NCBI GenBank assembly: GCA_014859345.1
Contig: JACUUL010000005.1
Span: forward strand, 1,072 to 65,071
Direction of reading: 5' to 3'
Length of the DNA stretch: 64,000 nucleotides
DNA from: Thermoleophilia bacterium
GTDB lineage: Bacteria > Actinomycetota > Thermoleophilia > BMS3ABIN01
Shown here: positions 38 through 20,813 of the stretch, piece by piece
Layout of the letters: each line of letters starts with the position of its first letter
How positions within the stretch are numbered: the first letter of the stretch is position 1
Position numbers and translations under genes: made by a program
Notes under the pieces: generated by a model
The model's database searches: none
Told to the model about the DNA's origin: nothing
What the model saw: the letters and a program-made list of their open reading frames with translations, nothing else

Positions 38-1048
38 TTGATATTCCCCCCTGTGAAAATCTCAGCCGTCGGCACATACGTGCCGGAACGGGTCATGACC
101 AATGATGAGCTGTCGCTCAGCCTCGACACTTCTGACGAGTGGATATCCTCCCGCAGCGGCATCCGCGAGCGCCACATCGCGGAGAACGGACAGGCGGCGT
201 CCGATATGGGCGCGATTGCAGCGCGGCGGGCCTTGGCGGCGGCGGAAGCCAGTCCCGGCGACATCGATCTGATCATCGTCGCCAGCCTTTCACCGGACAT
301 GATTTTCCCGCCCACCGCCTCTTTCATATCTGGCGCGATAGGGGCCAACGGGACACCGGCCTTTGACCTCTCCGCCGCTTGCACCGGATTCATTTACGCC
401 CTGGCGGCCGGAAGCTCATTTATTGCTTCAGGACAGGCAGAGAGAGTGCTGGTAGTGGGTGCGGAGGCGGTGTCCAAGATGATAGACTGGGCGGACCGCT
501 CCACGGCGGTCCTTTTTGGGGATGGCGCCGGGGCGGTGCTGCTGGAGCCGGCCTCCGGGGAAGGAGAGGGCATAATAGGCTTCGACCTGGGAAATGATCC
601 CGAGGGGGCGGATCTGCTTGATTTGCCGGCGGGAGGGTCCCGCCTGCCGGCGAGCCGGGAAACGATTGAGAATCGCCTGCATTTTCTGAAAATGAACGGA
701 CGTGAGGTTTTCAAATTTGCCACCAGGATCATAGTATCCTCCGCGAGAAAGGTGCTGGCCGAACACGGGCTGCGGGTGGAGGACGTCGACCTCTTCGTGC
801 CCCATCAGGCGAATATACGCATCATTGATACCGCGGCGAGGAAGCTGGGCATTCCCCCGGAGCGGGTCTTTTCCAACCTTGAGCGGTATGGCAATACTTC
901 CTGCGCCTCGATTCCGCTTTGCCTGGACGAGGCAGCGGCCGCGGGCCGCCTGGGAGGCGGCAGCCTGGCCCTCATGGTGGGATTCGGAGCGGGACTGTCC
1001 TGGGGGTCATGCCTGGCTCGGTTTGACGAACTGAAAAGGGCTACCTGA
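38..1048 (+). CDS. fabH: 3-oxoacyl-ACP synthase III (FabH); TTG start at 38, may extend upstream of window
   Basis: Track ORF. N-terminus 'KISAVGTYVPERVMTNDELS' and the C-terminal Cys/His/Asn region are typical of KAS III. Heads a fab operon. Confidence 0.8.
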   Translation: MIFPPVKISAVGTYVPERVMTNDELSLSLDTSDEWISSRSGIRERHIAENGQAASDMGAIAARRALAAAEASPGDIDLIIVASLSPDMIFPPTASFISGAIGANGTPAFDLSAACTGFIYALAAGSSFIASGQAERVLVVGAEAVSKMIDWADRSTAVLFGDGAGAVLLEPASGEGEGIIGFDLGNDPEGADLLDLPAGGSRLPASRETIENRLHFLKMNGREVFKFATRIIVSSARKVLAEHGLRVEDVDLFVPHQANIRIIDTAARKLGIPPERVFSNLERYGNTSCASIPLCLDEAAAAGRLGGGSLALMVGFGAGLSWGSCLARFDELKRAT

Positions 1049-1179
1049 GGCATCATCCGGCACTCCGGCTTAAGCAATGCAAGCGCGACACGACTTTAAT
1101 ATGCCGAAGATCTCGAACGTCAGGCTCTTCGCCACGCAGGTCTTCAACCTGACAAGTGGAACGAGAACTGGAGGATGCG

Positions 1180-2142
1180 ATGCCTAACCGCATCTGCGAG
1201 CTGCTCGATATAGACCATCCCATCATCCAGGGCGGCATGACCTGGGTAAGCGATGCTTCCCTGGCGGCAGCCGTCTCAAACGGAGGCGGCCTGGGAATCA
1301 TCGGCGCCGGAGCCATGCCGGCCGACGTGCTGCGTGAGGAGATTGGCAAGGCCCGCACGCTTACCGACAGGCCATATGGCGTCAACCTGATAATGATCAC
1401 CCCCAATCTTGACGAACAGCTGGAGGTGGTTGTGCGGGAACGGCCGCCAGTGGTCTCACTGGGCGCCATTCAGAGTACGTCGGTAATACCGGTGCTAAAG
1501 GAGGCCGGCATCAAGGTCGTGCCCGTCGTGGCGGCCGTATCCATGGCCCGGCGCTGCCAGCAGCAGGGCGCCGACGCCATTGTCGCAGAGGGCGCGGAAG
1601 CAGGGGGGCACATAGGAGAGACTACCACCATGGTTCTGACACCGCTGGTGGCCAGAGCGGTGGAGGTGCCGGTGGTGGCGGCCGGCGGGATCGTGGACGG
1701 CGCCAGCCTGGTGGCCGCGTTCGTTCTGGGTGCGGAAGGCGTCCAGATGGGCACCCGCTTCGTCTGCGCAACCGAATGCACCGTGCACGAAGCTGTCAAG
1801 GAGAAGTTTGTTAAATCCGGAGACCGGGCCACGGTTGTGACCGCGCGCTCCATCGGCTACCCCGTCCGCTCCTTAAAAAACAAGCTCGCCAAGCTCTACG
1901 ACGAGTGGGAAAAGAAATTCATAGCGAGCGAGTGCACCGCCATGGAAGTGGAGAACCTGGGGCTGGGCAAGCTGCGCGAGGCCATGCGCGAAGGCAACGT
2001 CAGGGACGGTTCCATGATGGCAGGCCAGTGCGTGGCCCTGGTGGAGAACGTGCAGCCGGCGGCGGAGATTATAGCCGGGATCATCGCTGAGGCGGAGCAG
2101 GTGGCCGGGGAGCTGCCGGCCAGGCTGGTGCTCAGGAGATAA
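1180..2142 (+). CDS. fabK: enoyl-ACP reductase II, FMN/NMO-type (FabK)
   Basis: Nitronate monooxygenase-like fold ('IIQGGMTWVSDASLAAAVSNGGGLGIIG'). Lies inside the fab cluster. ATG at 1180 is preceded by GGAGGA; the track ORF starts at 1156. Confidence 0.7.
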   Translation: MPNRICELLDIDHPIIQGGMTWVSDASLAAAVSNGGGLGIIGAGAMPADVLREEIGKARTLTDRPYGVNLIMITPNLDEQLEVVVRERPPVVSLGAIQSTSVIPVLKEAGIKVVPVVAAVSMARRCQQQGADAIVAEGAEAGGHIGETTTMVLTPLVARAVEVPVVAAGGIVDGASLVAAFVLGAEGVQMGTRFVCATECTVHEAVKEKFVKSGDRATVVTARSIGYPVRSLKNKLAKLYDEWEKKFIASECTAMEVENLGLGKLREAMREGNVRDGSMMAGQCVALVENVQPAAEIIAGIIAEAEQVAGELPARLVLRR

Positions 2143-2222
2143 AGGGCCTATGGCGGGAATCTTTGAACCAGACAACGATACGGGCGCGCAGGGCGGCAGG
2201 CCGGCGGTGAGCGCGTAGAGTC

Positions 2223-3140
2223 ATGGGCAAGCTGGCGTTGGTATTTCCCGGCCAGGGCTCCCAGGCGGTTGGCATGGGGGTGGAAATGGCCTTAAAGTAT
2301 GAGTCTGCTGCGGAGGTTTATCAGCGCGCTGACCGGTCGCTGGGCTGGAATATAAGCGACCTCAGTTTTTCGGGCCCCGCCGAGAAATTGAACCTGACGG
2401 AAAACGCCCAGCCGGCGCTTTATGTCAACAGCCTGGCTGCCATGGCGGTGCTCAGGGAAAAGGGCATCCGGGCTGATGTTGTTTCCGGCCACAGCCTCGG
2501 AGAGTACAGCGCCCTGGCTGCTGCGGGCGCGGTCGGGTTCGAAGAAGGACTGAAACTTGTGCGGCGGCGGGGAGAGATCATGGGAAGGACGGCCGCGGAG
2601 CGCCCCGGCTCGATGGCGGCCATCCTGGGCCTCGAGGACAGGCAGGTAGAGGAGATTTGTTCGCGGACGGGGAGAGTCTGGCCGGTCAATTACAACTCCC
2701 CGGGCCAGCTGGTGGTCAGCGGCGAGGCCGAAGCGGTGCAGGCTGCCATGCAGGCTGCGGAGGATGCGGGGGCCCGAAAAACGGTGAGACTGGCGGTTGG
2801 CGGCTCGTTTCACAGCCCGCTCATGCAGGCCGCCTCTGAAGAAATGGAGGAGCTGCTAAAGGAAACCCGGTTTGCCGAACCGGCGCCGCCGTTTCTTTCA
2901 TCGATAAGCTGCGGCTACGAGGGCGCCGCCGCCCTGGCAGGCCTGCTCACCCGACAGATCGTGGCTCCCGTGCGCTGGCGCCAGGCGGTGGAGAAGCTGG
3001 TCGCCGATGGAGTCGACCGCTTTATCGAGGCAGGCAGCGGCAAGGTGCTTTGCGGGCTGATAAAGAGAATCAGCCCGGATGTTGCCGCGGTAAACGTCTC
3101 GGATGAGGCCAGCCTCAAGAAGGCGATGGCCACGGTATAG
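2223..3140 (+). CDS. fabD: malonyl-CoA:ACP transacylase
   Basis: 'LVFPGQGSQ' and the 'GHSLGEYSALAAAG' active-site serine motif. Confidence 0.9.
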   Translation: MGKLALVFPGQGSQAVGMGVEMALKYESAAEVYQRADRSLGWNISDLSFSGPAEKLNLTENAQPALYVNSLAAMAVLREKGIRADVVSGHSLGEYSALAAAGAVGFEEGLKLVRRRGEIMGRTAAERPGSMAAILGLEDRQVEEICSRTGRVWPVNYNSPGQLVVSGEAEAVQAAMQAAEDAGARKTVRLAVGGSFHSPLMQAASEEMEELLKETRFAEPAPPFLSSISCGYEGAAALAGLLTRQIVAPVRWRQAVEKLVADGVDRFIEAGSGKVLCGLIKRISPDVAAVNVSDEASLKKAMATV

Positions 3141-3183
3141 AGACTCCTGTTTACTGCCAGATTAATCTATCAAAGGACGGGAA

Positions 3184-3951
3184 TTGAACACTGGTGACGA
3201 AACTCGCAGCACGCTCGAGGGCCAGGTGGCCCTGGTCACCGGCTCGGCAAGAGGCATAGGCCGCGCCACGATCGAGGCGCTGGCGGCGGCCGGGGCCGCC
3301 GTGGCCATAAACGATCTAGGGAACATGACAGGCGCCCAAAAGCTGGCGGCCGGCCTGGGCGAAGAGGGGGTCAAGGCCACGGCCTACGAAGCTGACATAT
3401 CCGATGCCGGCCAGGTGAAGGCCATGATCGAGCATGTGGAAAATGAGCTGGGAGGGATTTCCATACTGGTAAACAACGCCGGCATCACCCGCGACGGTCT
3501 GGTGATGCGTATGAGCGAAGCCGACTTTGACGCTGTTATCGCCACCCACCTTCGCGGATCATTTCTCTGCTGCAAGGCGGTCGCCCGGGGCATGATGAAA
3601 GCCCGGGGCGGCGTCATCATCAACATGGCCAGCGTCGTCGGCAGGCGCGGCAATCCCGGCCAGGCAAATTATGCCGCCGCCAAGGCCGGCATCATCGGCC
3701 TCACCAAATCACTGGCGCGTGAATTGGGGCCGCGCGGCGTCAGGGTAAACGCGGTGGCCCCGGGCTACGTGGCCACCGAAATGACCGCGGCTCTATCGGA
3801 AGCGCAACAGGAGTCCATCCTGAAAAATACGCCTCTGGGCCGGCTGGCTACGCCGGAGGAGGTGGCCGGCGTCATAGCTTTTCTGGCTTCACCTGCGGCT
3901 TCCTATATCACTGGAGCAGTGATTCCGGTAGATGGAGGACTGGGTATATGA
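3184..3951 (+). CDS. fabG: 3-oxoacyl-ACP reductase (short-chain dehydrogenase/reductase)
   Basis: 'VALVTGSARGIGRA' Rossmann motif, 'NNAG', and the 'YAAAKAG' catalytic Y-x3-K. TTG start with AAGGA upstream. Confidence 0.85.
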   Translation: MNTGDETRSTLEGQVALVTGSARGIGRATIEALAAAGAAVAINDLGNMTGAQKLAAGLGEEGVKATAYEADISDAGQVKAMIEHVENELGGISILVNNAGITRDGLVMRMSEADFDAVIATHLRGSFLCCKAVARGMMKARGGVIINMASVVGRRGNPGQANYAAAKAGIIGLTKSLARELGPRGVRVNAVAPGYVATEMTAALSEAQQESILKNTPLGRLATPEEVAGVIAFLASPAASYITGAVIPVDGGLGI

Positions 3952-3998
3952 AAACATTGCAGATTTGCAGACTGGTTCTTCATGGAGAGAGATAAAAA

Positions 3999-5234
3999 AT
4001 GAGCGGCCGCCGCGTGGCCATAACAGGAATTGGCGTGATTTCGCCGCTGGGCATCGGTCTGGAAACCTTTTGGGATGCGCTGGTGTCGGGCAGGTCTGGC
4101 GCTGGTCCCATCACCCAGTTTGACGCGTCCGAATTCCGCGTGCGCATCGCCGCGGAAGTCAAGGATTTCGATCCTGCGGAATGGATGGAAAAAAAGAAGG
4201 CTCGCCGCATGGACCGGTTCGCGCAGTACTCGGTGGCCGCGGCCAGGATGGCCGTGGAGGACGCCTCCCTGGATGTCGCCGGGGACGCTGAAAAAATCGG
4301 CGCCATGGTAGCCAGCGGCATAGGCGGGGTAAAAACCTTTGAGAAGGAGACCGGAAACCTGATCAGAAAGGGGCCGGACCGGGTTAGCCCCCTGTTCATC
4401 CCCATGGAGATCGCAAATATGGCCTCCGCGCAAGTATCCATCGAGCTGGGCGTCAAGGGACCGGTAAGCACCGTATGCACGGCATGCGCCGCCGGCAACA
4501 ACGCCATCGGCGACGCGTTCGAGATAGTCAAGCGCGGCGCGGCCGACGTCATGCTGGCCGGGGGCAGCGAAGCCTCGGTGTCGCCCGTAGGAATAGCCGC
4601 CTTTGCCGCCATGCGGGCCTTGTCGGAAAGGAATGACGAACCTGAGCGGGCGAGCCGGCCCTTTGACCGCGACCGAGACGGTTTTGTCATGGGCGAAGGA
4701 GCGGCCATTCTGGTGCTGGAGGAAATGGAGAGAGCCAAAGACCGGGGCGCACGAATCTACGCGGAGATTTCCGGTTACGGCATGAGCTCGGACGCGTATC
4801 ACATCAGCGCCCCGGAGCCCGGAGGAGAAAATGCGGCCCGGGCCATGACTGCGGCGCTAAAGGAAGCGCAGCTATCAGCCGCGGACCTCGACTATATCAA
4901 CGCTCACGGCACCTCTACCCCGCTGGGCGACGAGATCGAGACGCGAGTGATCAGGACGGCCCTCGGAGAGCACGCGGACAGGGTGGCTGTCAGCTCAACC
5001 AAGTCAATGACAGGGCACTGCTTGGGGGCGGCCGGGGCGCTGGAGGCGGCGGTGTGCGTTCTGGCAATCGAGCGTGGAGTCATTCCCCCGACCATAAATC
5101 TCGACAATCCCTGTCCAGGATGCGACCTGGATTATGTCCCCAATCAGGCCAGGGAACGGCAGGTCACGGTGGCGGCATCCAACTCCTTCGGTTTTGGCGG
5201 CCACAACGTTACCCTCATCTTTCGCGCTCACTGA
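3999..5234 (+). CDS. fabF: 3-oxoacyl-ACP synthase II
   Basis: 'RRVAITGIGVISPLG' and the KAS II catalytic Cys/His/His regions. Starts 48 nt after fabG with no acpP between. Confidence 0.9.
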   Translation: MSGRRVAITGIGVISPLGIGLETFWDALVSGRSGAGPITQFDASEFRVRIAAEVKDFDPAEWMEKKKARRMDRFAQYSVAAARMAVEDASLDVAGDAEKIGAMVASGIGGVKTFEKETGNLIRKGPDRVSPLFIPMEIANMASAQVSIELGVKGPVSTVCTACAAGNNAIGDAFEIVKRGAADVMLAGGSEASVSPVGIAAFAAMRALSERNDEPERASRPFDRDRDGFVMGEGAAILVLEEMERAKDRGARIYAEISGYGMSSDAYHISAPEPGGENAARAMTAALKEAQLSAADLDYINAHGTSTPLGDEIETRVIRTALGEHADRVAVSSTKSMTGHCLGAAGALEAAVCVLAIERGVIPPTINLDNPCPGCDLDYVPNQARERQVTVAASNSFGFGGHNVTLIFRAH

Positions 5235-5247
5235 GCCTGAGATTGTC

Positions 5248-6195
5248 ATGGCACATGTCTCCGTCGACATCAGCAGACGCAACGGCACTCCGGACGCTGT
5301 TGGCTGTCCCTCCTGCAAGGAGCTCCTCAACAGGGCCGAGCTGGCGAAAAATCTCCAGGTCTGCCACCATTGCGGCCATCACTTCCGAGTCGGTGCCCGG
5401 GAACGAGTCGGGCAGCTTGCCGACGTCGGCACATGGTCCGAGATCGCCGGAAGCCTGCGCTCGGCAGATCCACTTGAATTTTACGATCTCAGGCCTTACC
5501 CCGAGCGAATCGAGGAGGCCGAGTACGATACCGGCCTTTCCGAAGCCATCCTGGTTGGGACCTGCAAGCTTCACAAGATGGATGTCGTGCTCGCGGCCAT
5601 GGATTTCGCTTTTTTAGGAGGAAGCATGGGCAGCGTCGTCGGCGAAAGGTTCTGGCGGGCGGCCGAGACCGCAGCGGAGTCCCGCTTTCCACTTGTCGTG
5701 GTGTGTGCTTCAGGCGGCGCCCGCATGCAGGAAGGCATCCTCTCGTTGATGCAGATGGCCAAGACCACCTGCGCGGTGGAGATGTTGGGCGAGGTGCCGG
5801 TCCCCTTCGTAACGGTGCTTACCCATCCCACTACCGGCGGAGTGATGGCAAGCTTCGCCACGCTCGCCGATGTCATCATCTCGGAGCCCGGGGCCCTCCT
5901 TTGTTTCACAGGACCCCGCGTCATCGAGCAGACGGTCAAGGAGGCGCTGCCGGAAGACTTCGGCAGGGCTGAGTCCAACCTGGCTCATGGCCAGATCGAC
6001 ATGATTGTATCCCGTCCGGAGCTCAAAGACCGGCTCGTGCAAATACTGGGCATGATGGAAGGGGGTGTCGCCTGTGCCCTCGAACCGATCTGGGAAGCAG
6101 AAGCGCGCCGTGGAAGACGAGGAGGGCCGTTTGCGGAAGCGCTTAAGCGAATTAAAGCGCTTGCCAACCCTTCCGGGCGTCCATCTAAAAGATGA
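5248..6195 (+). CDS. accD: acetyl-CoA carboxylase carboxyltransferase beta subunit
   Basis: N-terminal C4 zinc ribbon (CPSCKELLNRAELAKNLQVCHHCGHHFR) followed by a carboxyltransferase domain. ATG at 5248. Confidence 0.85.
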   Translation: MAHVSVDISRRNGTPDAVGCPSCKELLNRAELAKNLQVCHHCGHHFRVGARERVGQLADVGTWSEIAGSLRSADPLEFYDLRPYPERIEEAEYDTGLSEAILVGTCKLHKMDVVLAAMDFAFLGGSMGSVVGERFWRAAETAAESRFPLVVVCASGGARMQEGILSLMQMAKTTCAVEMLGEVPVPFVTVLTHPTTGGVMASFATLADVIISEPGALLCFTGPRVIEQTVKEALPEDFGRAESNLAHGQIDMIVSRPELKDRLVQILGMMEGGVACALEPIWEAEARRGRRGGPFAEALKRIKALANPSGRPSKR

Positions 6196-7063
6196 AATAA
6201 CAAAAATTAGCCAGCGCATTAAGGAGCTGGGCAGCGGCCGGCGTGTCGACAGGCATGTCTGGGACAAGGTGGAGCTGGCCAGGCATCCCAAGCGGCCCTA
6301 CTCTCTCGATTACATCCAGCATATGTTTTCCGGCTTCATCGAGTTGCGCGGAGACAGGCTTTTCGCGGACGACCCGGCCATCATCGGGGGGCTGGCCTCC
6401 TATCATGGCCGCACCATAATGGTTGTCGGCCACCAGAAGGGCAGGGATCTGGCGGCACGGACACGCCGCAACTTTGGCATGCCGCGGCCGGAAGGATACC
6501 GCAAGGCCCAGCGGCTGATGAATCTGGCCAGCAAATTCGGCATCCCGGTCCTTACTCTGATAGACACTCCGGGCGCTTATCCGGGAGTGGCTGCCGAAGA
6601 GCGCGGCCAGGGCGGCGCCATCTCCAGCACCCTTATGTGCATGGCGCGCCTGGACGTGCCTACTGTTTCGGTGATAATTGGAGAGGGAGGGAGTGGCGGC
6701 GCTTTGGCCCTGGCCCTGACTGACCGGGTGCTGATGCTGGAAAACTCGATCTATTCGGTTATCTCCCCCGAGTCTTGCGCCGCAATCCTCTGGAAGGACT
6801 CCGATGAGGCGCAGCTGGCGGCCCAGACGCTCAGGCTAACGTCTGCTGAACTGCTGGATCTCGAAATCATCGATGGAGTACTCCCGGAGCCGCGCGGCGG
6901 CGCCCATCGCGATCACGCATCAGCCGCGCGCATCCTGAAGGATGCTCTTGAGGAAAACCTGCGGGACCTGGAAACGGCGCATCCGCGGCGAAGAAAAAAA
7001 GAGCGCCACGAAAAGTTCAGAAGGATGGGGGTCTGGCGGGAACACGGCCTGACGCTCTTTTAG
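6131..7063 (+). CDS. accA: acetyl-CoA carboxylase carboxyltransferase alpha subunit; start uncertain, overlaps accD 3' end in another frame
   Basis: 'ARHPKRPY...GDRLFADDPAIIGGLA...IMVVGHQKG' AccA motifs. Candidate TTG at 6131 with GGAGGG upstream. The track ORF opens at GTG 6065. Confidence 0.7.
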   Translation: MRKRLSELKRLPTLPGVHLKDEITKISQRIKELGSGRRVDRHVWDKVELARHPKRPYSLDYIQHMFSGFIELRGDRLFADDPAIIGGLASYHGRTIMVVGHQKGRDLAARTRRNFGMPRPEGYRKAQRLMNLASKFGIPVLTLIDTPGAYPGVAAEERGQGGAISSTLMCMARLDVPTVSVIIGEGGSGGALALALTDRVLMLENSIYSVISPESCAAILWKDSDEAQLAAQTLRLTSAELLDLEIIDGVLPEPRGGAHRDHASAARILKDALEENLRDLETAHPRRRKKERHEKFRRMGVWREHGLTLF

Positions 7064-7123
7064 GAGCCGGCTTTTAGCAAGCTGTCGGAAATCCGCGCCT
7101 CAGCTGGCAGCGACAGCCGGCGC

Positions 7124-7603
7124 TTAAACCACATCGCTGTTCCCGATCTCCCGGTCGTGATAATCATGATAAGCAAAATAGCCGGCTATCTCTCCCGAGA
7201 TGAACGCGTCTCCCAGCCGGTTCAGGGTCAGAATTCCCTGAAGCAGCTGGTTCTCCTCCCAGCTGTCGACCGCGAGCAGGTGGTTTATCAGGGTTTCCTC
7301 CAGCGCTCGCCGCAGGGCCATGCCGGTGGATATGATATCCGGAAGGCCGAATCCGACGGCACTTCGCCGATAAGACGTCTCCTGGGCGGCTGACCGCACC
7401 CGGCGGAGGACATCAGTACGCTGATATTCCTCGGCCTCGAAAAAAGCGATTGTGAGCGACAGCAGGCCGGAGGCGAAGTTCGTCCCCATGGATGTTTTAA
7501 GCATCTGCTCGAAGTCCTCGGCGATAATGCCGTTCAGATTATCGAGCCAGCGCCTGATGACCTCTTCCTGATTTTCTCTGAGGGTATTTGCAAGTAAATA
7601 CAT
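7124..7603 (-). CDS. hypothetical protein, RsbRD_N-like (RsbT co-antagonist N-terminal-like) domain
   Basis: The track ORF is longer with a low-complexity Arg/Gly-rich N-terminus. The conserved part starts at ATG 7603 ('MYLLANTLRENQEEVIRRWLDNL'). Confidence 0.4.
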   Translation of the reverse strand: MYLLANTLRENQEEVIRRWLDNLNGIIAEDFEQMLKTSMGTNFASGLLSLTIAFFEAEEYQRTDVLRRVRSAAQETSYRRSAVGFGLPDIISTGMALRRALEETLINHLLAVDSWEENQLLQGILTLNRLGDAFISGEIAGYFAYHDYHDREIGNSDVV

Positions 7604-7704
7604 ATAAACGTCCCGGTCAGAGACTATTTTTGCTATCGGAGGATAGATGCAGAAACTTAATTTGCAGGGAAAACAGGAGCCATGCGAGGGCGCGCCCCGG
7701 AGTG

Positions 7705-8469
7705 TTAAACGGCTTGGTTGGCGATGAGCGCGGCGGTCGCGCCTGCCCCGATGCCGTTGTCGATGTTCACCGCGACCAGTCCGGGACAGCAGCTCTGCAG
7801 CATTGAAAGCAGGGCAGTTACGCCTTCGCCACCCAGACCGTAGCCGGTTGAGGTGGGCAAGCCTATAACCGGGACGGCAACCAGGCCGGCAACCACCGAC
7901 GGCAGCGCCCCCTCCATCCCCGCCGCCACGATCATCACAGCCACTCCCGCGTCCACCATTTCGCTGAGAGGTTCCGCCAGCCGGTGCACGCCGGCGACCC
8001 CGACGTCGTAAGCCCTGAACACATCGCAACCCATCTCTTCAGCCATTATTCGGGCCTGCTCGGCTACGGCCACATCGGCAGTGCCGGCCGTGAGAATGCC
8101 CACTTTGCCGCCCCCGGCAGGTTTTTCATAGTCACGGCCTCTCACGACCAGTGTTCCGGCCGCCTCGTTTCCAGCCGCCACCATGCCGTCGAATTCGGTG
8201 GCCAGATCTTGCCAGCCCTCCCTGTCGAGGCCGCTGATGATGGCCCTGCCGGAGTGTTCAATCAGGCCGGCCGATATCTTCCTGACCTGTTCGGCTGATT
8301 TACCCGGGGCATAGACGACCTCGGGCACGCCCTTGCGGCCGTGGCGGCCCAGGTCCAGGCGGGCGAACTCGCCGATGTGCGCTACTGAAAGCAGGGCCAG
8401 CCGGGAGTCAGCCTCGTCCAATGAAATTTCCCCCCGGGCCAGCTGGCCGAGTATCTCGCGTATCTTCAT
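7705..8469 (-). CDS. larB: LarB-family PurE-like carboxylase (pyridinium-3,5-biscarboxylic acid mononucleotide synthase-like)
   Basis: ~250 aa with an N-terminal LarB-specific domain plus a PurE-like fold ('VGILTAGTADVAVAEQARIMAEEMGCDVFRAYDVGVAGVHRL'). Overlaps the upstream amidohydrolase gene by 4 nt. Confidence 0.7.
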   Translation of the reverse strand: MKIREILGQLARGEISLDEADSRLALLSVAHIGEFARLDLGRHGRKGVPEVVYAPGKSAEQVRKISAGLIEHSGRAIISGLDREGWQDLATEFDGMVAAGNEAAGTLVVRGRDYEKPAGGGKVGILTAGTADVAVAEQARIMAEEMGCDVFRAYDVGVAGVHRLAEPLSEMVDAGVAVMIVAAGMEGALPSVVAGLVAVPVIGLPTSTGYGLGGEGVTALLSMLQSCCPGLVAVNIDNGIGAGATAALIANQAV

Positions 8470-9392
8470 GCCCCCACCATCCTCAGCAGTTCCTGGCCGC
8501 TGCCGCCCAGGATAGCCTCCCGGTCCGCAGCCGGCAGGCCGGATTTTTCTATGTCCCCGAAGTAGCGGTCCATGGGAATGAGCGGGTAATCGCTGCCAAA
8601 GAGTATTTTTCGTGAGCCCACCGCCTCCGCCGCCAGGCGATATACGGAGGCGTCGTACAGGTAGGGACTGGCCGAACAGTCATACCAGACATTCGCCAGC
8701 GCCTCCCTGACGTCGGGCATCAGTTCGAAGAAGGCCAGGCCGCCACCCCAGTGGGAGTAAATCAGTCTCAGCTCCGGATGTCTCAACGCAAGGTTGTAGC
8801 CCTTGCGGGGGCTGGTGGGGCCCTTCCCCGGGTATTTGCGGCCCACCGGCTCGCTCAGATGGACCATGACCGGGAGATCGTGGGCAGCGGCGAACTCCCA
8901 GAACGGCTCCAGCCCTGCCTCATCGTCCAGGTCGAAATGTTGTCCCAGGGGCTTGAGCTCACCGACTCCCTTGAGGCCCAGGCCCAGGCAGCGATCGAGT
9001 TCCCTTATAGCTTCGGGATGCAGGGGAGGGACATTGGCCAAGCCAACCAGGCGCTCCGGATAACGCGCCGCGGCATCGGCAATATAGCTGTTGGTCTCGA
9101 CGTAAAGATCGAAGCTTTTCCAGGCGAAGCCGCACACCACCGCCCGGTCCACGCCGCAGCGGTCCATCTCCCCGATAAGCTCGGACACCCGTGCCATGCG
9201 GGCCTGGGGAGAGCCGTAGAGCCGGGCAAACCACTCCTCCCGGGCCAAATAGGCCTCGCGGTTGGCGATCACATCCGGCGAGAACACGTGAGTGTGGAAG
9301 TCGATGATCATTAGCTGGCGGCCAGCGTTGGAAATTCGGGCAATGACTCGACAGAGGAGGGCATCGCGCATGTTCCGCACCGCCTGGAGCAC
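8466..9392 (-). CDS. amidohydrolase-2 family metal-dependent hydrolase/decarboxylase
   Basis: 'IIDFHTHVF' metal-binding start and a TIM-barrel amidohydrolase_2 pattern ('FGSDYP'). Confidence 0.65.
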   Translation of the reverse strand: MLQAVRNMRDALLCRVIARISNAGRQLMIIDFHTHVFSPDVIANREAYLAREEWFARLYGSPQARMARVSELIGEMDRCGVDRAVVCGFAWKSFDLYVETNSYIADAAARYPERLVGLANVPPLHPEAIRELDRCLGLGLKGVGELKPLGQHFDLDDEAGLEPFWEFAAAHDLPVMVHLSEPVGRKYPGKGPTSPRKGYNLALRHPELRLIYSHWGGGLAFFELMPDVREALANVWYDCSASPYLYDASVYRLAAEAVGSRKILFGSDYPLIPMDRYFGDIEKSGLPAADREAILGGSGQELLRMVGA

Positions 9393-9423
9393 GGTCCAGG
9401 CGGTGCGGAAGGACGAAACGGGT

Positions 9424-10374
9424 TCAGCTCTGCAGCGTCAGGCACTTGTCACCCTGGTAGATATGGGCAGCCTCCTCCACGGACATGTTGGCCAGCGTGA
9501 TCGCCGAGATGGCGTCGCACATGCGAACGGCCTCGTCGAGTGGCTTCTGGTGGATATTGCGCCCCGTGGCATTGCCCTGGGCGCCGGCGATGTGTATCTG
9601 GTCATGGAGGCGCTGCAGGAAGGCGGTTGCGTCGGTGGAAGAGCCGCCTGCAGCCACCACCCGGGTGCGTCCGGCCGCCACGACGGCCTCCTTGAATATT
9701 TCGGCCGAATTCTCTCCTTCTTTCTTGGGGTAGTTGACCTTGACGAAGTCCGCTCCCAGCGCCAGAGCCACGCCACAGGCTCCGGCGATCAGGTGCGGAT
9801 CCTTTTCATCGGACACATCCTTGCCCCGAGGGTAAATCCAGAGCACGACCAGCAGGCCTTGGCCGTGGGCGTCCGCAATCAGCTGAGCCGCCTGCTGGAG
9901 CATGCGGTCCTCGAAGGTGCTGCCCAGATAGATGGTGTAGCCCACGGCCGGAATCTTCAGCCCTGCTTCGCGCTTGACGTCGATAACATTCCGGACGCCC
10001 AGCCACTGATTGCTGAAGGGATCCTGTGTGGATTTCTTCACCAGATGTGTTTTTGAGTTAAGCTTGACAAGATAGGGGATATCAGGATAGTCGCCGCCGT
10101 ACATCGAGATCAGGCCCAGCTGGGTGGCGAAGACGCCGATGGTGCCCTTGCTGGCGATCCGGAACATATGCTCGGGGTCGGCGTCGTCCTCGGGGATCCG
10201 TCCCAGCTCATATTCGCCGAAAAAGTCGTCGTTTAGATGCTCAACTTTCTGGTCGCCGGCGAAAAGCATGAGGCGCCCGGTCGACTTTGTCATCAGTCGG
10301 AAGTTTTTAACATACTCTTCCCGCGCCGACTGGGGTACGTCGAGCGGTATCTTGATTTCTGCGGCATCGGACAT
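9424..10374 (-). CDS. class I (DhnA/FbaB-type) aldolase
   Basis: DhnA-family length and motifs ('GADFVKVNYPKK', Schiff-base lysine region). Confidence 0.6.
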   Translation of the reverse strand: MSDAAEIKIPLDVPQSAREEYVKNFRLMTKSTGRLMLFAGDQKVEHLNDDFFGEYELGRIPEDDADPEHMFRIASKGTIGVFATQLGLISMYGGDYPDIPYLVKLNSKTHLVKKSTQDPFSNQWLGVRNVIDVKREAGLKIPAVGYTIYLGSTFEDRMLQQAAQLIADAHGQGLLVVLWIYPRGKDVSDEKDPHLIAGACGVALALGADFVKVNYPKKEGENSAEIFKEAVVAAGRTRVVAAGGSSTDATAFLQRLHDQIHIAGAQGNATGRNIHQKPLDEAVRMCDAISAITLANMSVEEAAHIYQGDKCLTLQS

Positions 10375-10505
10375 GGTTCTCCCTACCTTCCTTTCTCTCT
10401 AACTGGACAGTCTGCTCGAATATCGATCGCCGGGCGAACCCGCCCCGGAAGCGACCACCCGGATAATATATAATAAGCAGGTCGTATCCGCACCAATACG
10501 GATTA

Positions 10506-11759
10506 TTGCCATTGACTTCAGTGACGGAAAAAGCCGGGGCGGCACGGCTTGCATTTTATGAACTGGCTGTCCTGCCCACTAAAGCCAAAAACGCGGCGCT
10601 GCTGGCTATGGCCGACGCCCTGATGGAGAATGTGACCGAGGTAGAGGAAGCCAACGCCAAGGATCTGGGCGCCGGGAAGGCCAAGGGGCTCACGACCGCG
10701 ATGCTCGACCGGCTGATGCTTGACCGGGATCGCGTGGAACTGATGGCCGGAAATCTACGGGAAATGGCGGCCCTGGATGACCCGGTGGGAACCGTCATCA
10801 ACGCCTGGACAGCGCCAAACGGCATGAGTGTGTCACGGGTGAGATCGCCCATCGGCGTCATTGGAATAGTTTACGAAGCCCGTCCCAATGTGACCACCGA
10901 TACGGCGGGCCTGTGCTTGAAGGCCGGCAACTGCATAATCCTCAGGGGCGGCTCCGAGGCCATTCACTCAAACCGGGTGCTGGCCCGCCTGATGGCAGAA
11001 GCCGGCTCAAGAGCTGGCATGCCGGACGGGGTCATCCAGTTCGTGGAGACCACGGACCGGGCTGCCGTAAGCGAGCTGCTGGGCCTGGCGGGGATGGTCG
11101 ACCTGGTGATCGCCAGGGGCAGCCACCGTCTTATCAAGACCGTAACCGGCGAATCGAAGATACCCGTCATGAAACATTACCGGGGCCTTTGCCATATATA
11201 TATCGAGAAGTCCGCCGACCGCGAGATGGCATTGCGGGTAGTCCTGAACGCCAAGACCAACAGGCCCAGCACCTGCAACTCCGTGGAGACGGTGCTGGTG
11301 GACGAAGCCCGGGCGGAAGACATACTGCCCCAACTGGCGGCTTCTCTGAAAGGGGCCGGTGTCGAAGTACGCGCTGATGGCCGGGCCCGCGCCATCGTTC
11401 CGGAATGGTCCGAGGCCACAGAGGCGGACTGGGACACCGAGCACCTGGACCTCATCCTCTCTCTCAAGATCGTCAGCGGGTTCGATGAAGCCATCGAGCA
11501 TATCCGCCGCCATCACTCGGGGCTGGCGGACGCGATCATAACTGAAACCGAGCAACAGGCCGAGAAGTTTCTGGCCATGGTCGACAGCGCCGCGACCTAC
11601 TGGAACGCCTCCACCCGGCTGACCGACGGCCTGCCTTTCGGCATGGGCCCGGCCAGCGGCATCAACACCGACCGGGTTTATCCCCGCGGACCCATGGGCA
11701 TCGAGGAGATGACCGGATCCAGGTTCGTGATCAGGGGAACGGGACAAGTACGCTCTTAA
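10506..11759 (+). CDS. proA: gamma-glutamyl phosphate reductase
   Basis: 'TKAKNAALLAMADAL' plus the aldehyde dehydrogenase fold over 417 aa. Confidence 0.85.
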   Translation: MPLTSVTEKAGAARLAFYELAVLPTKAKNAALLAMADALMENVTEVEEANAKDLGAGKAKGLTTAMLDRLMLDRDRVELMAGNLREMAALDDPVGTVINAWTAPNGMSVSRVRSPIGVIGIVYEARPNVTTDTAGLCLKAGNCIILRGGSEAIHSNRVLARLMAEAGSRAGMPDGVIQFVETTDRAAVSELLGLAGMVDLVIARGSHRLIKTVTGESKIPVMKHYRGLCHIYIEKSADREMALRVVLNAKTNRPSTCNSVETVLVDEARAEDILPQLAASLKGAGVEVRADGRARAIVPEWSEATEADWDTEHLDLILSLKIVSGFDEAIEHIRRHHSGLADAIITETEQQAEKFLAMVDSAATYWNASTRLTDGLPFGMGPASGINTDRVYPRGPMGIEEMTGSRFVIRGTGQVRS

Positions 11760-11842: not shown

Positions 11843-12901
11843 TCAGACCAGCACGTCGATCCGGCCGGTGTCGTCCTCCGCCTCCATGATTCCGATCTTC
11901 GCGTGCACGATCGTGCCCGCCTCCTTAAGCGCCGACTCCAGCTCATCGGCTTTTTCGGGCGGGCAGGAAATGAGCAAGCCTCCGGATGTCTGGGCGTCAG
12001 CTAGCAGCAGCCGTTCCGCCTGAGAGAGCCCCGGATCGAAATTGGTGAACGCCTGGACGAATTCCAGGTTGTTTTTAGTTCCGCCGGGGACAATGTTCAG
12101 GTCTTCGAAAACGAGGTCGCGCGCAGCCTGGATCGTAGGGACCGCCCGCGCGTGGATCCTGGCGCCTACGCCGCTACCCTGGGTCATCTCGCCCAGATGC
12201 CCCAGCAGGCCGTAGCCGGTAACGTCGGTGCAGGCGTTGACACCCACCTTCACCATTGCCTCCGCCGCCGCCCGGTTGAGCGTGGTCATGATCTCGGTCA
12301 CGCGCCTGATGGCTGCCTCGCTGGCAATGCCCCGCTTGATGGCGGTGGCGATGATTCCGGTGCCGATCGGTTTGGTCAGAAAGAGGACATCTCCTGCCTG
12401 CGCTGTGGAATTGTAGACGATCGCGGCCGGGTCGAGCACGCCGGTGACGGCAAGGCCGTACTTGGGCTCCTTGTCATCGATGGTATGGCCGCCCACGATC
12501 TCGATACCGGCCTCACGGGCCTTGTCGGCGCCGCCTTTCATCATCCTGGTCAAGATCTCCAGCGGCATGCCCCGGGTATGGAAACCGACTATATTAAGCG
12601 CGAACATCGGGCTGGCTCCCATGGCGTAGATATCGCTTAACGAATTGGCAACCGCTATGGCTCCGTAATCGTAGGGATCGTCGACGATAGGAGTGAAATA
12701 ATCGACTGTCTGAATGATTGCCAGATCGTCGGTTATCTGGTAAACAGCGCAATCATCGCCGGTGTTTATGCCCACCAGCACGTTGGGATCGCGCACCGGA
12801 GGCAGCTCCCTGAGAATCTTTTGCAAGTCCGACGGACTTATCTTGCAGGCTCAGCCGGCGCCGTGGGCCAGCTGGGTGAGCCGGATTTCCTGCTCTTCCA
12901 T
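11843..12901 (-). CDS. selD: selenide, water dikinase (selenophosphate synthetase); selenoprotein with in-frame UGA (Sec) at 12851-12853
   Basis: The track ORF (TTG start at 12826) has all SelD core motifs but lacks the catalytic N-terminus. Reading upstream in frame gives ATG (12899-12901), then MEEQEIRLTQLAHGAG-TGA-ACKISPSDLQKILREL. This matches the E. coli motif HGAGCGCKISP with Sec in place of Cys17. RBS GGGAGAGG lies upstream of the ATG. A hairpin starts 11 nt after the UGA. Confidence 0.85.
12822..12846 (-). ncRNA. candidate SECIS hairpin inside the selD coding sequence
   Basis: mRNA: UGA-GCCUGCAAGAU(11 nt)-AAGUCC-GUC-GGACUU. Inverted repeat AAGUCC/GGACUU, extended by GCAAG/CUUGC. Confidence 0.55.
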
Positions 12902-12948
12902 GAACCTCTCCCTTCTATGACGGTTTGTAATACTTAAGTATAATAGTT

Positions 12949-13734
12949 TTAAACGCCTGCCAAATCCAGAGCCATGCCCACCGCCGTGGCGGCTATCACG
13001 AGCGCCAGGACCTGCCGCAGCCGGCGTCTTCTGGTGATCTGCGATAAATATCCGCCTCCCTGAGCGCCCAGGAGAGCGCCTGCGATTAGAAAAACCGCCA
13101 TGGCCATCTCGACCTGTCCGGTCACCACTTTGCCGGCTGACCCTGCAAGGGCCGCCAGAAACACGATGCCGAGCGAACTGCCTATTGTCGTCCGGGTGGG
13201 GATTTTCAGCACATAAAGCAGGACCGGGATGATGATAAAGGCCCCCGATTGGCCCACCAGCCCTCCCACCAAGCCCAAGATTAACGCGCAGGCCGCCGCC
13301 AGGGGCCGGCTGAAATCGATCTCGGACGCGTGCGGTTCCTCAGAAGGCTCCTTTTTTGGAATGAGCATCATGACGGCGGCTATCAATGCCAGCACGACGA
13401 ATACACCCATCAACGCGCCGGCGGAGGCGAACCTGGAAAGCACGGCCCCGGTCAGCGAGGCAACAGCAATGATACCGCCCATCCACAGGACCAGTTCCCT
13501 GCTGACAAATTGGAACCGGCGATGGACGATGACACCGGAGCCGGTCGCGAACAGGCTCTGCACCATGGTGAGTCCGGCGACCACCTTCATGTCAGGATTT
13601 GCGACTCCGAGGGCCGGGGGTACGTACAGAAGCAGGGGGGCCATGATGATGCCGCCGCCGATTCCCAGCCAGCCGGAAAAGAAGCCTCCAACGAGGCCGA
13701 GGCCGAGCAATGTTATGGCCAGCTCGATGGTCAT
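12949..13734 (-). CDS. TauE/SafE (DUF81) family anion permease
   Basis: 261 aa, 7-8 TM helices, Gly-rich internal repeats typical of TauE/SafE. Lies 47 nt upstream of selD on the same strand. Confidence 0.65.
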   Translation of the reverse strand: MTIELAITLLGLGLVGGFFSGWLGIGGGIIMAPLLLYVPPALGVANPDMKVVAGLTMVQSLFATGSGVIVHRRFQFVSRELVLWMGGIIAVASLTGAVLSRFASAGALMGVFVVLALIAAVMMLIPKKEPSEEPHASEIDFSRPLAAACALILGLVGGLVGQSGAFIIIPVLLYVLKIPTRTTIGSSLGIVFLAALAGSAGKVVTGQVEMAMAVFLIAGALLGAQGGGYLSQITRRRRLRQVLALVIAATAVGMALDLAGV

Positions 13735-13772
13735 AAAATGGTTGCTTGTTCCTGGGGAGGAGAACCGGCCTG

Positions 13773-14327
13773 TCAGTCCTTGTCTGTCAGGAGTTCATCC
13801 AGATAGGCCACGTGGCTGGAAAATCCGAGGGCTGAGGTATATGCCAAAGCCTCGCTCAGAGTCCGGCCCACCACATAGGAGCCGTGACCGCGGATGACGG
13901 CGGCCACGTGAGTCTGCAGCACCTGGGGGATACGGCTGTTGGTCTGTTCCGGATCCACCACAGGAACCTCCCGGAGAAACACAGAGCCTTCGAGATCCCT
14001 TGGAGCAATCATATCACTTCTGAGGGAGAGGGCAATGGCGTGTGGCGGGTGGGCATGGATGATGGCCGCGGCCGGAGTAAACCTGTAAATGAGCTGATGC
14101 AGGCCGGCATCACTGGACGCGCCGCCGGCGATGCGGTCCGGTTCTTCCCGAAGGGGGATTTCCACCAGGTCGCCCGGACCCAGGCGGCCCAGCATGGCGA
14201 AATGAGTGGTCACGATCATGTGGCCCGCGTGACGGACGCTCATGTTGCCGCCGTGGGACGTAGAAAGGCCCAGCCAGAGAAGATCTTTCCCTACCTGCTG
14301 AAATTGCTCGAAGATCAGGTCCTGCAT
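13773..14327 (-). CDS. class II aldolase/adducin-family protein (FucA/MtnB-like)
   Basis: 'LSTSHGGNMSVR' and the conserved His metal-ligand region. Confidence 0.65.
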   Translation of the reverse strand: MQDLIFEQFQQVGKDLLWLGLSTSHGGNMSVRHAGHMIVTTHFAMLGRLGPGDLVEIPLREEPDRIAGGASSDAGLHQLIYRFTPAAAIIHAHPPHAIALSLRSDMIAPRDLEGSVFLREVPVVDPEQTNSRIPQVLQTHVAAVIRGHGSYVVGRTLSEALAYTSALGFSSHVAYLDELLTDKD

Positions 14328-14342
14328 GATCGTGAACTCCGT

Positions 14343-15698
14343 TCAGCTTGACTTTCCGGCGCCGCCCGCTTCACCTGGCAGCTCCACCGTATGCACAATC
14401 CGGGCCCGGGAGCCCGCCCGGGCAAGCATGTCTGTCAAGTGCATGCGGCACGAGGGGCAGCCGGTAACCACTGCCTGGACGCCGCTGGCTGCAATCTCCT
14501 CGGCCTTGCGGAGCCCTATTTCGAGAGCCATGTCATAATGCTTGAGGCTGAAGAGGCCTCCGCCGCCGCAACAGGATTGCCCGCCCGGCATCTCGATGTA
14601 TCTTACCCCGGGGATGGAAGCGATAATCTCCCGGGGCCCGTCGGTCATGTCCAGCCCGTGGCGGAGATGGCAGGGGTCGTGCCAGGTCACGGTGATCTCG
14701 TCTTCGCCCGCCCCCTTGTCTCCCGGGGACATGCCGGCCCGGGCGCGGGCCGCGCGCTTTTCTTCAGGCCCGGCGACCGCCCCGGTCTTGGCAGGCGTGC
14801 CGTATCCGGCCATAGAGCCCGAAGCAAGGAATTGATGGATGTCCAGCACTTTGGCAGCCAGCTTCCTTGCGTCCGACCGGTCCGGGCCCAGCAGCCTCGG
14901 CAGCTCCTCCCTGAGGGACAGGGCGCAGGACGGACAGGGGGTGACGACGGCATCGGCGTCGAGAACGCCAAGAATGTGAAGATTGTTCTCGAGCATCAAG
15001 CGGGCGGCGCCTTCTTCCCCCAGCGACAGCAGTGGCATGCCGCAACACTTAAGGCCACGCGGGCTGAGGACATCGTTTCCGGATCTGTTCAGCGCCGCGA
15101 CGGCGGCGAGACCCGTTTCCGGATAAAAGGCAGTCGTACTGCAACCAGGAAAGAGGATCACCCGGGAGGCGCCTGCTTCCGGGCCGCCTGACGCGTGCGA
15201 GATCTCCGGCAACATATCCAGAAGAGATCTCCCGGGCGGCGCGGGAAGTACGCGTTTGCGGCCCGAGCGGCAATAAGGCAGGTAACTCGCGGCCGGGGCC
15301 TTTTGGTAAAGGGCAGCCTCCAGGAGGCCCGCCAGCCTTAAACCGGCTTGGGGGCGGCCGCCTGTTCCGGCCAGGGCCGCAGTGGCGGACCGGGACAGCT
15401 TCCAGAACCCGCCTTCCGCGGCCAGAAACGCTTTCGCGGCCGCGATGATCCGGTGTGGGTCGATGCCACTGGGACAAACCCCTGCGCAGGCGCGGCAGCC
15501 CAGGCAGCGGGAGAAGCGGCCGGCCAGTCCGCGGGTCAGGCCCAGACGATCATCGAGCACCGCCTCCAGGAGGCTGACGCGGCCTCTGGCCGCCAGCGAT
15601 TCGTCGCCAGAAACCTGATAGGAAGGGCATGCCTCCAGGCAGGCGCCGCAGCGGGTGCAGCGGCGGATCTGGTCCTCGATCTGTCGGGGAAGGGTCAT
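14343..15698 (-). CDS. (Fe-S)-binding oxidoreductase, GlcF/GlpC-like with two CCG domains
   Basis: N-terminal 2x[4Fe-4S] ferredoxin motifs (CTRCGACLEACP...CLGCRACAGVCP) and C-terminal CCG motifs (CCG...CPSC). Confidence 0.65.
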   Translation of the reverse strand: MTLPRQIEDQIRRCTRCGACLEACPSYQVSGDESLAARGRVSLLEAVLDDRLGLTRGLAGRFSRCLGCRACAGVCPSGIDPHRIIAAAKAFLAAEGGFWKLSRSATAALAGTGGRPQAGLRLAGLLEAALYQKAPAASYLPYCRSGRKRVLPAPPGRSLLDMLPEISHASGGPEAGASRVILFPGCSTTAFYPETGLAAVAALNRSGNDVLSPRGLKCCGMPLLSLGEEGAARLMLENNLHILGVLDADAVVTPCPSCALSLREELPRLLGPDRSDARKLAAKVLDIHQFLASGSMAGYGTPAKTGAVAGPEEKRAARARAGMSPGDKGAGEDEITVTWHDPCHLRHGLDMTDGPREIIASIPGVRYIEMPGGQSCCGGGGLFSLKHYDMALEIGLRKAEEIAASGVQAVVTGCPSCRMHLTDMLARAGSRARIVHTVELPGEAGGAGKSS

Positions 15699-20381: not shown

Positions 20382-20813
20382 TTAACGTGCTTCAGTTCCG
20401 GGACACGTCAATTCCTTTTCAATCAGTCCGCGCACCCGGATAGCCGCCGCCGCGACTTCGGCCGAGAGCCCGCCGTCCCGGGGCATGACATTTCCTACCT
20501 GCACGGCGAATACGAGGACCTCTGGATCGATTCCTTTCAGGCGGGCGCTGGTGATCAGGTAAGGCAGGCCCATGCCATGGATATTGTTGGAACGCAGATT
20601 CATGATGCCAGCCTCGTCGGGATGGAATTTGAAGATGGCGCCCGGACTGGCTCCGCAGTCGATGGCGTCCACCGCGATAACCAGGTCATAATCCAGGAAA
20701 TATCTGATCAGCGCCATGCCGGCCGTGGCCCCGGTGACAAGCTCGACTCCGGGAGGCACCGATCCGGGATCGAACCCCTCAACCACCGCCACGCCCACTC
20801 CGTCATCGGCCAT
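20382..20813 (-). CDS. hydrogenase maturation endopeptidase (HyaD/HybD/HycI family)
   Basis: 143 aa with 'DDGVGV' and 'AVDAIDCG' motifs. Last gene of the hydrogenase operon. Confidence 0.7.
   Translation of the reverse strand: MADDGVGVAVVEGFDPGSVPPGVELVTGATAGMALIRYFLDYDLVIAVDAIDCGASPGAIFKFHPDEAGIMNLRSNNIHGMGLPYLITSARLKGIDPEVLVFAVQVGNVMPRDGGLSAEVAAAAIRVRGLIEKELTCPGTEAR

Follow-up and report, generated by a model that had tools for sequence, protein, structure and literature searches.

A Conserved Amidohydrolase–LarB Gene Pair in a Thermoleophilia Bacterium and Its Network of Genomic Links with ThpR

The LarB Locus

We have analyzed a stretch of 64,000 nucleotides from contig JACUUL010000005.1 of a Thermoleophilia metagenome-assembled genome (Actinomycetota), hereafter called the window, which contains a gene for LarB, the synthase of pyridinium-3,5-biscarboxylic acid mononucleotide (P2CMN). 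In canonical lar systems LarB works together with LarC and LarE, whereas here its gene overlaps that of an Amidohydro_2 metalloenzyme within a set of four genes that occupy positions 7124 to 10374, all on the minus strand and in the same orientation (table 1). The conserved unit of this locus is a two-gene module formed by amidohydrolase and LarB, as the comparison of actinobacterial genomes presented below indicates. All four genes have a coding-like GC content at third codon positions (0.75–0.77), and the window LarB and amidohydrolase are 100% identical to the NCBI proteins listed in table 1, which are encoded on a MAG contig of 66.7 kb. The finding is real and correctly located, even if the initial annotation framed the gene set partly wrongly; the order of the four genes is present as it described it, and so are the 4 nt (ATGA at 8466–8469) by which the amidohydrolase gene overlaps that of LarB.

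Two gene starts had to be revised. The amidohydrolase most likely begins at the ATG at 9311 and has 281 residues; the upstream GTG at 9392 was rejected because all 49 homologues (49/49), as well as the NCBI model, begin with MIIDFHTH at this ATG, and because the GTG codon falls within the loop of a 16-bp hairpin. It follows that the spacer separating the amidohydrolase gene from that of the aldolase measures 112 nt, and is structured, instead of the 31 nt initially given. The small open reading frame (ORF) downstream of the LarB gene, for which a start at 8029 had been proposed, actually extends over the 159 codons listed in table 1.

Table 1. Coordinates of the LarB locus and of other features in the 64-kb window
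Feature	Position	Strand	Basis or remark
Aldolase, class I DhnA/PRK06852-type	9424–10374	−	PF01791, NF005321, PDB 4moz
Hairpin, perfect 16-bp, GC-rich	9373–9410	−	Folding of spacer
Amidohydro_2 metalloenzyme, 281 aa (NCBI MBE0428539.1)	8466–9311	−	PF04909
LarB, pyridinium-3,5-biscarboxylic acid mononucleotide synthase, 254 aa (NCBI MBE0428538.1)	7705–8469	−	NF033503
RsbRD_N-like stand-alone protein, 159 aa, all-helical	7124–7603	−	PF14361, sub-threshold
Fatty-acid synthesis block: fabH, NMO-type enoyl reductase, fabD, fabG, fabF, accD, accA	38–7063	+	Abuts the LarB locus
selD (selenide, water dikinase), TauE/SafE exporter, class II aldolase/adducin-family protein, CCG/4Fe-4S protein	11843–15698	−	Consecutive genes
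[NiFe] hydrogenase operon: small and large subunits, cytochrome b, HycI protease	20382–24409	−	
CsoR/RcnR-type metal-sensing repressor	34117–34407	+	
parB, parA, rsmG (gidB), mnmG (gidA), second truncated GIDA-like ORF, mnmE	36865–44418	−	Typically origin-proximal
Ectoine synthase (EctC), class III aminotransferase (EctB-like)	61498–63185	−	Near window edge; probably part of an ectoine operon

Genomic Contexts of LarB

The surroundings of LarB were scanned in one genome per species, yielding 80 loci (designated by L numbers), mostly from Thermoleophilia, Gaiellales and Rubrobacteraceae. Clustering of their ORFs resolved four arrangements, which are listed in table 2. According to tblastn, the amidohydrolase gene lies directly 5' of the LarB gene in 35 loci, the distance between the two having a median of −1 nt; a stop/start overlap of 1 or 4 nt is present in 19 of these, and the gap is at most 60 nt in 32 of the 35. 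The pairing holds down to ~40% identity between the amidohydrolases and is found in two different surroundings, namely that with proA, aldolase and acc genes and that with Ddl and epimerase genes. The conserved partners of LarB are the amidohydrolase, the RsbRD_N-like ORF (located 3' of LarB throughout context A and, within context C, in L040 and L061) and, in Rubrobacteraceae, a ThpR-type phosphoesterase.

Table 2. Arrangements of genes around LarB (arrowheads give gene orientation)
Context	Gene order	Occurrence
A	proA< aldolase> amidohydrolase> LarB> RsbRD_N-like> accA<	Clade of the window, ~22 loci
B	Ddl> amidohydrolase> LarB>	Without aldolase; different flanks
C	L,D-transpeptidase-like< LarB> (RsbRD_N-like>) Ddl>	Without amidohydrolase
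D	LarB> ThpR-type 2H phosphoesterase>	Rubrobacteraceae, 32 loci by tblastn

The gene labeled Ddl recurs beside the LarB module in contexts B and C (L005, L027, L029, L038, L040, L045, L052, L061 and others), where the neighbors also include an L,D-transpeptidase-like protein and UDP-GlcNAc 2-epimerase, a cell-wall gene neighborhood. Its product is a D-alanine-D-alanine ligase (NF002378, 370 bits); its identification as a D-Ala-D-lactate ligase was rejected, the D_ala_D_lac model giving 170 against a cutoff of 550.

Identity of LarB and Absence of Other lar Genes from Its Surroundings

The window protein scores 234.2 bits with the LarB model NF033503 (cutoff 175) and remains far under the cutoff of TIGR01162, the model for PurE (N5-CAIR mutase; 38.5 bits vs. 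149.6), so that its initial assignment to LarB, and not to PurE, is sustained. Its residues 4–251 align with residues 5–245 of the Lactiplantibacillus plantarum protein (LpLarB, PDB 8soq; E = 9.6e-48), with a further match to PDB 7mj0, and the two-domain, full-length architecture of LpLarB is retained, the AIRC domain spanning residues 122–250. Cys227 of the window protein, within the motif QSCCPG, and the glutamate of the motif AAGMEGAL align with Cys221 and Glu180 of LpLarB. We take Cys221 to be the catalytic residue that forms an adduct with C4 of the pyridine ring, and Glu180 to be likewise catalytic; these roles were reportedly assigned by Rankin et al. in 2021.

The alignment of 77 related LarBs with LpLarB contains 57 positions that are at least 95% identical, including the equivalents of Cys221 and Glu180, and no group-specific substitution in the active site was found among these 77 proteins. 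The identity of the window LarB is 46–56% with LarBs linked to LarC or LarE, which come from archaea and Chloroflexota, and 47–56% with other actinobacterial LarBs. Because it is equally similar to both groups, there is no sign of neofunctionalization. Judging from sequence, the window protein is a true LarB with an intact active site; the canonical reaction expected of it would be the carboxylation of C5 of the nicotinic acid ring in nicotinic acid adenine dinucleotide (NaAD), with hydrolytic removal of AMP to give P2CMN. With the LarB of the larABCDE genes of L. plantarum it thus shares full-length homology, the Cys221 and Glu180 equivalents and the 57 near-invariant positions, whereas its gene is not clustered with larA, larC or larE but has an overlapping Amidohydro_2 gene on one side and the RsbRD_N-like gene downstream.

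Pfam scans of the ~59 ORFs of the window found no Lar_N domain (LarA), no Ni_insertion domain (PF01969, LarC) and no LarE-type PP-loop protein. Likewise, when LarC and LarE of the canonical cluster L171 served as tblastn probes (the LarE probe being validated by TIGR00268 with 261 bits), the window gave no match at E ≤ 0.01. Both searches bear out the initial description of LarB as an orphan within 64 kb. LarC and LarE are also missing within ±10 kb in all of the actinobacterial LarB loci considered (0 of ~75); local orphanhood is systematic in this lineage. LarC is instead adjacent to LarB, or no more than 5 kb away from it, in L007, L039, L085 and L171, which are all four of the non-actinobacterial LarB relatives lying on contigs long enough to judge, and also in two loci of Dehalococcoidales; LarE too is near LarB in L039 and L171. 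The two Dehalococcoidales loci (L172, 9146–11179; L173, 302–2363) show LarB and LarC as an adjacent pair beside alaS, without LarE nearby, and constitute a further partially dispersed lar arrangement. When the LarC of L085 was used in a homologue search aimed at Thermoleophilia LarC, the named matches were all from Chloroflexota.

Since dispersed lar genes have already been documented in cyanobacteria and haloarchaea (Haloferax), a LarB orphaned at its locus is by itself nothing unusual; according to the literature, ~15% of genomes carry larBCE without larA. The window resembles the dispersed larB, larC and larE sets without larA of cyanobacteria and Haloferax in that LarB stands alone at its locus, but differs from them in the conserved partners of its LarB, namely amidohydrolase, ThpR and RsbRD_N-like protein.

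The Amidohydrolase Partner of LarB

The amidohydrolase matches PF04909 with an E value of 3.5e-37 (129 bits vs. 26.4). In the alignment of 49 sequences, the ligand residues His151 (β5), His187 (β6) and Asp241 (β8) are invariant, as are Glu118, Lys163, Arg18, Arg87 and Arg107, while the HxH motif of β1 (His6 and His8) is conserved in at least 90%. The family has motifs of its own, SEPVGHxYPGKG and HWGGG, together with Glu118. In the AlphaFold2 (AF2) model, which has a predicted local distance difference test (pLDDT) score of 93.6, the metal ligands are located where strands 1, 5, 6 and 8 end, and only the invariant VGHxYPGKG loop is disordered.

Foldseek retrieved 3nur, LigW, γ-resorcylate decarboxylase and ACMSD with E values of 1e-15 to 1e-16. 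Structures and profiles taken together, the nearest proteins are 3nur, LigW, the γ-resorcylate and 2,3-dihydroxybenzoate decarboxylases, ACMSD and LigY/LigJ, with template modeling (TM) scores of 0.7–0.77 and ~20% identity, and iso-orotate decarboxylase is a weaker match. In the comparison of profiles with the PDB, the best full-length matches were the uncharacterized short forms 3cjp and 3irs. The likeness to ACMSD, LigW and the γ-resorcylate, 2,3-dihydroxybenzoate and iso-orotate decarboxylases lies in the TIM barrel and in the ligand set of HxH, His, His and Asp. In contrast to the ACMSD/LigW-type decarboxylases, with which it shares ~20% identity, the window protein is ~50 residues shorter (281 aa vs. 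~330 in the characterized enzymes) and has its own invariant motifs. We have thus carried out the test of ACMSD/LigW grouping that the initial annotation suggested: sequence and fold do place the protein there, though in a shorter and separate subfamily, and it is accordingly predicted to be an ACMSD/LigW-like metalloenzyme with a complete ligand set. The arginine and lysine residues, combined with the flexible loop, we take to fit an anionic nucleotide. A TatD-like binuclear phosphoesterase was considered as well, given the position of Glu118 at β4 and weak matches to PF01026, and is retained as no more than a minor alternative because the profile comparison with the PDB returned Amidohydro_2 enzymes only.

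In a library of representatives at 50% identity, 450 clusters match the amidohydrolase at E ≤ 1e-30. No fusion to LarB or ThpR was found among 150 representatives, the sole fusion being that of P0389 (461 aa), in which the amidohydrolase is C-terminally fused to a glycosylase domain of the MUG/UDG superfamily (PF03167, 2e-20); this protein may be a genuine fusion, or else two genes that were called as one. Four other members (P0443, P0457, P0465 and P0495) carry a conserved C-terminal extension of ~100 residues that has no match in Pfam.

ThpR and the Network of Three Families

Chloroflexota have orthologues of the amidohydrolase with 45–50% identity and the same SEPVGHxYPGKG and HWGGG motifs. 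The gene directly 3' of them, often overlapping, encodes ThpR in 57 of the 81 loci from metagenomes (tblastn finds 69), many of the remaining loci being truncated. The same pair of amidohydrolase and ThpR occurs in Dehalogenimonas and in two further unrelated neighborhoods, that is, in at least three unrelated contexts. In loci of the Rubrobacteraceae type, ThpR is found directly 3' of LarB (n = 32) and scores 142–160 bits with TIGR02258 (cutoff 65.7). The ThpRs of Chloroflexota and Rubrobacteraceae both pass this model for the RNA 2',3'-cyclic phosphodiesterase ThpR/LigT and have both HxT/S motifs intact. ThpR is therefore a recurrent partner of the amidohydrolase in Chloroflexota and of LarB in Rubrobacteraceae, whereas it is absent from the 64-kb window.

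Each of the three possible pairs of these families, amidohydrolase–LarB, LarB–ThpR and amidohydrolase–ThpR, is thus formed in one of three lineages. From this pairwise network we infer, as a judgment to which no computed probability is attached, a functional relation rather than inherited synteny. Dehalococcoidales also possess a LarB>LarC operon at a locus separate from that of amidohydrolase and ThpR, so that the amidohydrolase, ThpR, LarB and LarC families coexist at the class level. Searches of full-text literature found no paper that ties LarB to Amidohydro_2 proteins or to 2H phosphoesterases, nor was the three-way network of gene neighbors found there.

Other neighbors of the amidohydrolase–ThpR pair were recorded too. 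In L169 (6001–9103) the pair is followed by a SLOG/LDcluster4 protein and phosphoribosyl pyrophosphate (PRPP) synthetase, and in Dehalococcoidia (L088–L167) the gene order is L25/Ctc > amidohydrolase > ThpR > Zn-ribbon > ComF-type phosphoribosyltransferase > HPF. The genes downstream of the pair are of the nucleotide-salvage type.

The Aldolase and the RsbRD_N-like ORF

The initial annotation had treated aldolase, amidohydrolase and LarB as a three-gene set, which does not stand as a unit. The aldolase adjoins the amidohydrolase only in loci of context A, the clade of the window, and resembles a housekeeping enzyme: it matches PF01791 (3e-51) and NCBIfam NF005321 (507 bits, cutoff 420), and its best match is a solved fructose-bisphosphate aldolase (PDB 4moz, 2e-104). 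It is probably a housekeeping fructose-bisphosphate aldolase; ADH synthase (AroA') was rejected, since TIGR01949 gives 90.3 bits against a cutoff of 299.45.

Behind the aldolase gene there is a hairpin with the arms TTCCGCACCGCCTGGA and TCCAGGCGGTGCGGAA and the loop CCGTGC, which begins 13 nt past the stop codon and has no U tract. The spacer, folded as 126 nt, gives −49.2 kcal/mol (z = −3.8 vs. shuffles), and the hairpin is likely a terminator or mRNA-end element. Strong hairpins are also present 3' of the aldolase gene in relatives of context A in which the spacer is long. Furthermore, a TATACT or TATAAT hexamer precedes the amidohydrolase start by 6–8 nt in L003, L006, L008, L010, L011, L013, L015, L017, L021 and L026, of which the window itself has no clean copy. 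This box and the hairpins behind the aldolase in the relatives suggest that amidohydrolase and LarB may form a separate transcript of the leaderless type. The aldolase is, on these grounds, probably a bystander and not part of the module.

The product of the small ORF covers the whole PF14361 profile with an E value of 5.8e-4 and 21 bits, which is below the gathering score of 24.3; the same profile is matched by 10 of 16 homologues. Its best match in the PDB is RsbR (7b0u) at E = 0.64. The AF2 model obtained from the single sequence is poor (pLDDT 62), and a Foldseek search with this poor model gave no match at E ≤ 1e-3. The name RsbRD_N-like used in the initial annotation can hence be retained insofar as the weak match extends over the full profile and recurs in homologues, but not as an assignment above threshold; a protein resembling the N-terminal, sensor-globin-like domain of RsbR is plausible.

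Other Features of the Window

The order of genes in the fatty-acid synthesis block next to the LarB locus is retained in L003, L004 and L006, and the class II aldolase and TauE genes of the window are syntenic in L003 too. The [NiFe] hydrogenase operon and the CsoR/RcnR-type repressor indicate that the organism handles nickel. GC-skew shows no clear switch within the 64 kb. Rfam detected no riboswitch or other RNA, either in the 64 kb at the gathering score or in positions 6900–10700 at E ≤ 1; a scan for consensus promoters and terminators found nothing beyond the background of shuffled sequences. PADLOC models of anti-phage defense matched neither the four locus proteins nor ThpR.

Possible Functions of the Amidohydrolase–LarB Module

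The most likely interpretation of these data is that of a dispersed lar system with a new, conserved accessory enzyme coupled to LarB. A more specific form of it, which we prefer to its rivals while giving it somewhat less than an even chance, is that the amidohydrolase works on LarB's pool of pyridinium-carboxylate nucleotides, that ThpR acts in the same extended pathway and that LarE and LarC are encoded elsewhere. LarB would then make P2CMN from NaAD in an actinobacterial lineage having unclustered lar genes, with LarE and LarC, if present, located elsewhere in the genome. As gene linkage suggests, LarB would be translationally coupled to the ACMSD/LigW-like metal-dependent enzyme, and the latter might act on the product of LarB or a close derivative, by ring decarboxylation or hydrolysis, in a step of control, recycling or extra maturation. 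The ThpR-type 2H phosphoesterase would have its place in this extended pathway too.

Several points weigh against this proposal. Decarboxylation of P2CMN would just regenerate nicotinic acid mononucleotide, a futile reaction unless regulated. The search for lar genes covered one contig, and the presence of LarC and LarE in the genome is assumed. Ddl is common to the contexts of Thermoleophilia, and these are perhaps not completely independent of each other. The amidohydrolase lacks the ~50-residue insertion of the characterized decarboxylases and belongs to a family that is biochemically uncharacterized and covered by no NCBIfam model; in addition, the MUG/UDG fusion in P0389 points toward the repair of nucleic acids or nucleotides. 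Finally, the Chloroflexota amidohydrolase is not beside LarB, and hence its substrate need not be the product of LarB.

This last situation is also what would be expected if the window contained an ordinary dispersed lar system, with LarE and LarC elsewhere and with amidohydrolase, RsbRD_N-like ORF and aldolase as merely inherited neighbors of LarB. Such a simple explanation, which we hold to be unlikely, gains from the precedents of Haloferax and cyanobacteria, from the fully canonical appearance of LarB and from the Ddl gene common to contexts B and C, which suggests a common ancestry of the arrangement. It does not account well for stop/start overlaps that have been kept across ~40–68% protein identity and in two surroundings, nor for the independent amidohydrolase–ThpR and LarB–ThpR pairings of other lineages, which complete a triangle not easily put down to chance synteny. 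At the opposite extreme, LarB of Thermoleophilia and Rubrobacteria might function independently of LarC and LarE, making or recycling together with amidohydrolase and/or ThpR a pyridinium-dicarboxylate nucleotide other than the nickel-pincer cofactor, which would serve as a variant cofactor or as a signal, or be an intermediate of salvage. The lack of LarC and LarE in ~75 actinobacterial loci and in the 64-kb window, when non-actinobacterial relatives have LarC close to LarB, is in line with this possibility, and so is the gain by LarB of other tightly linked partners in these lineages. Yet lack within ±10 kb does not equal lack from the genome, LarB exhibits no change in active site or rate, the organism uses nickel (as its [NiFe] hydrogenase operon indicates) and those Chloroflexota that have the amidohydrolase–ThpR pair also have LarC. 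We therefore regard LarC/LarE independence as improbable, and remain doubtful in particular of a new pathway in which LarB, without LarE and LarC but with amidohydrolase and/or ThpR, would make or recycle a pyridinium-dicarboxylate nucleotide, be it a variant cofactor free of nickel or a metabolite derived from NAD.

The remaining explanations shift the emphasis from LarB to its partners. Amidohydrolase and ThpR could be a pair processing RNA or DNA ends or the cyclic phosphate of ADP-ribose, linked to LarB only via NAD-derived nucleotide metabolism; this would agree with the equivalog status of ThpR as RNA 2',3'-cyclic phosphodiesterase, with the weak TatD_DNase matches of some amidohydrolase family members, with the one glycosylase fusion and with the Chloroflexota neighbors (ComF-type phosphoribosyltransferase, SLOG protein, PRPP synthetase, L25 and HPF). 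Profile and fold searches, however, lead to ACMSD/LigW-type enzymes and not to TatD, and a role of this kind offers no reason for translational coupling with an intact LarB, which makes it quite unlikely. An even slimmer chance is given to the amidohydrolase as a new scaffold that employs the nickel-pincer nucleotide (NPN) or mononucleotide (NPMN), co-expressed with the first enzyme of cofactor biosynthesis. Its model would be NphT, an NPMN-dependent aldo-keto reductase (AKR) found through its neighborhood to larBCE (Nat Chem 2026, PMC13524815); another recently found pincer-cofactor user is an ornithine cyclodeaminase dependent on nickel-pincer adenine dinucleotide (NPAD), and the same neighborhood logic led to both. 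NphT is also a TIM barrel outside the LarA family that is genomically tied to genes of nickel-pincer biosynthesis, and binds its cofactor via His and Lys, to be compared with the invariant Lys163 in a mobile loop and the invariant His residues of the amidohydrolase. The pipeline of that publication took LarC as its anchor and called for LarB and LarE in the vicinity (PMC13524815); for this reason it would not see the window locus. On the other hand, the amidohydrolase has all the classical metal ligands intact, as in an ordinary metallohydrolase or decarboxylase, and its link is with LarB alone and does not extend to LarC or LarE. It belongs to a metallohydrolase superfamily, whereas known NPN users stem from NAD(P)-binding scaffolds for hydride transfer, and its use of the cofactor would leave the pairing with ThpR unexplained.

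Should LarC and LarE sit elsewhere in the genome and the substrate of the amidohydrolase be unrelated, the locus would contain an ordinary dispersed lar gene. If LarC/LarE independence were true instead, the pathway would give ThpR and the amidohydrolase family their first physiological role; more generally, the link of amidohydrolase, LarB and ThpR would offer a lead on the cellular role of ThpR. A metalloenzyme whose translational coupling to LarB extends over an entire clade of actinobacteria represents a concrete, clonable candidate for a new step of the pincer cofactor (in its biosynthesis, control or salvage), for a scaffold using this cofactor or for a use of P2CMN independent of LarC and LarE. 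The locus may thus mark an undescribed step in the metabolism of pyridine-nucleotide cofactors.

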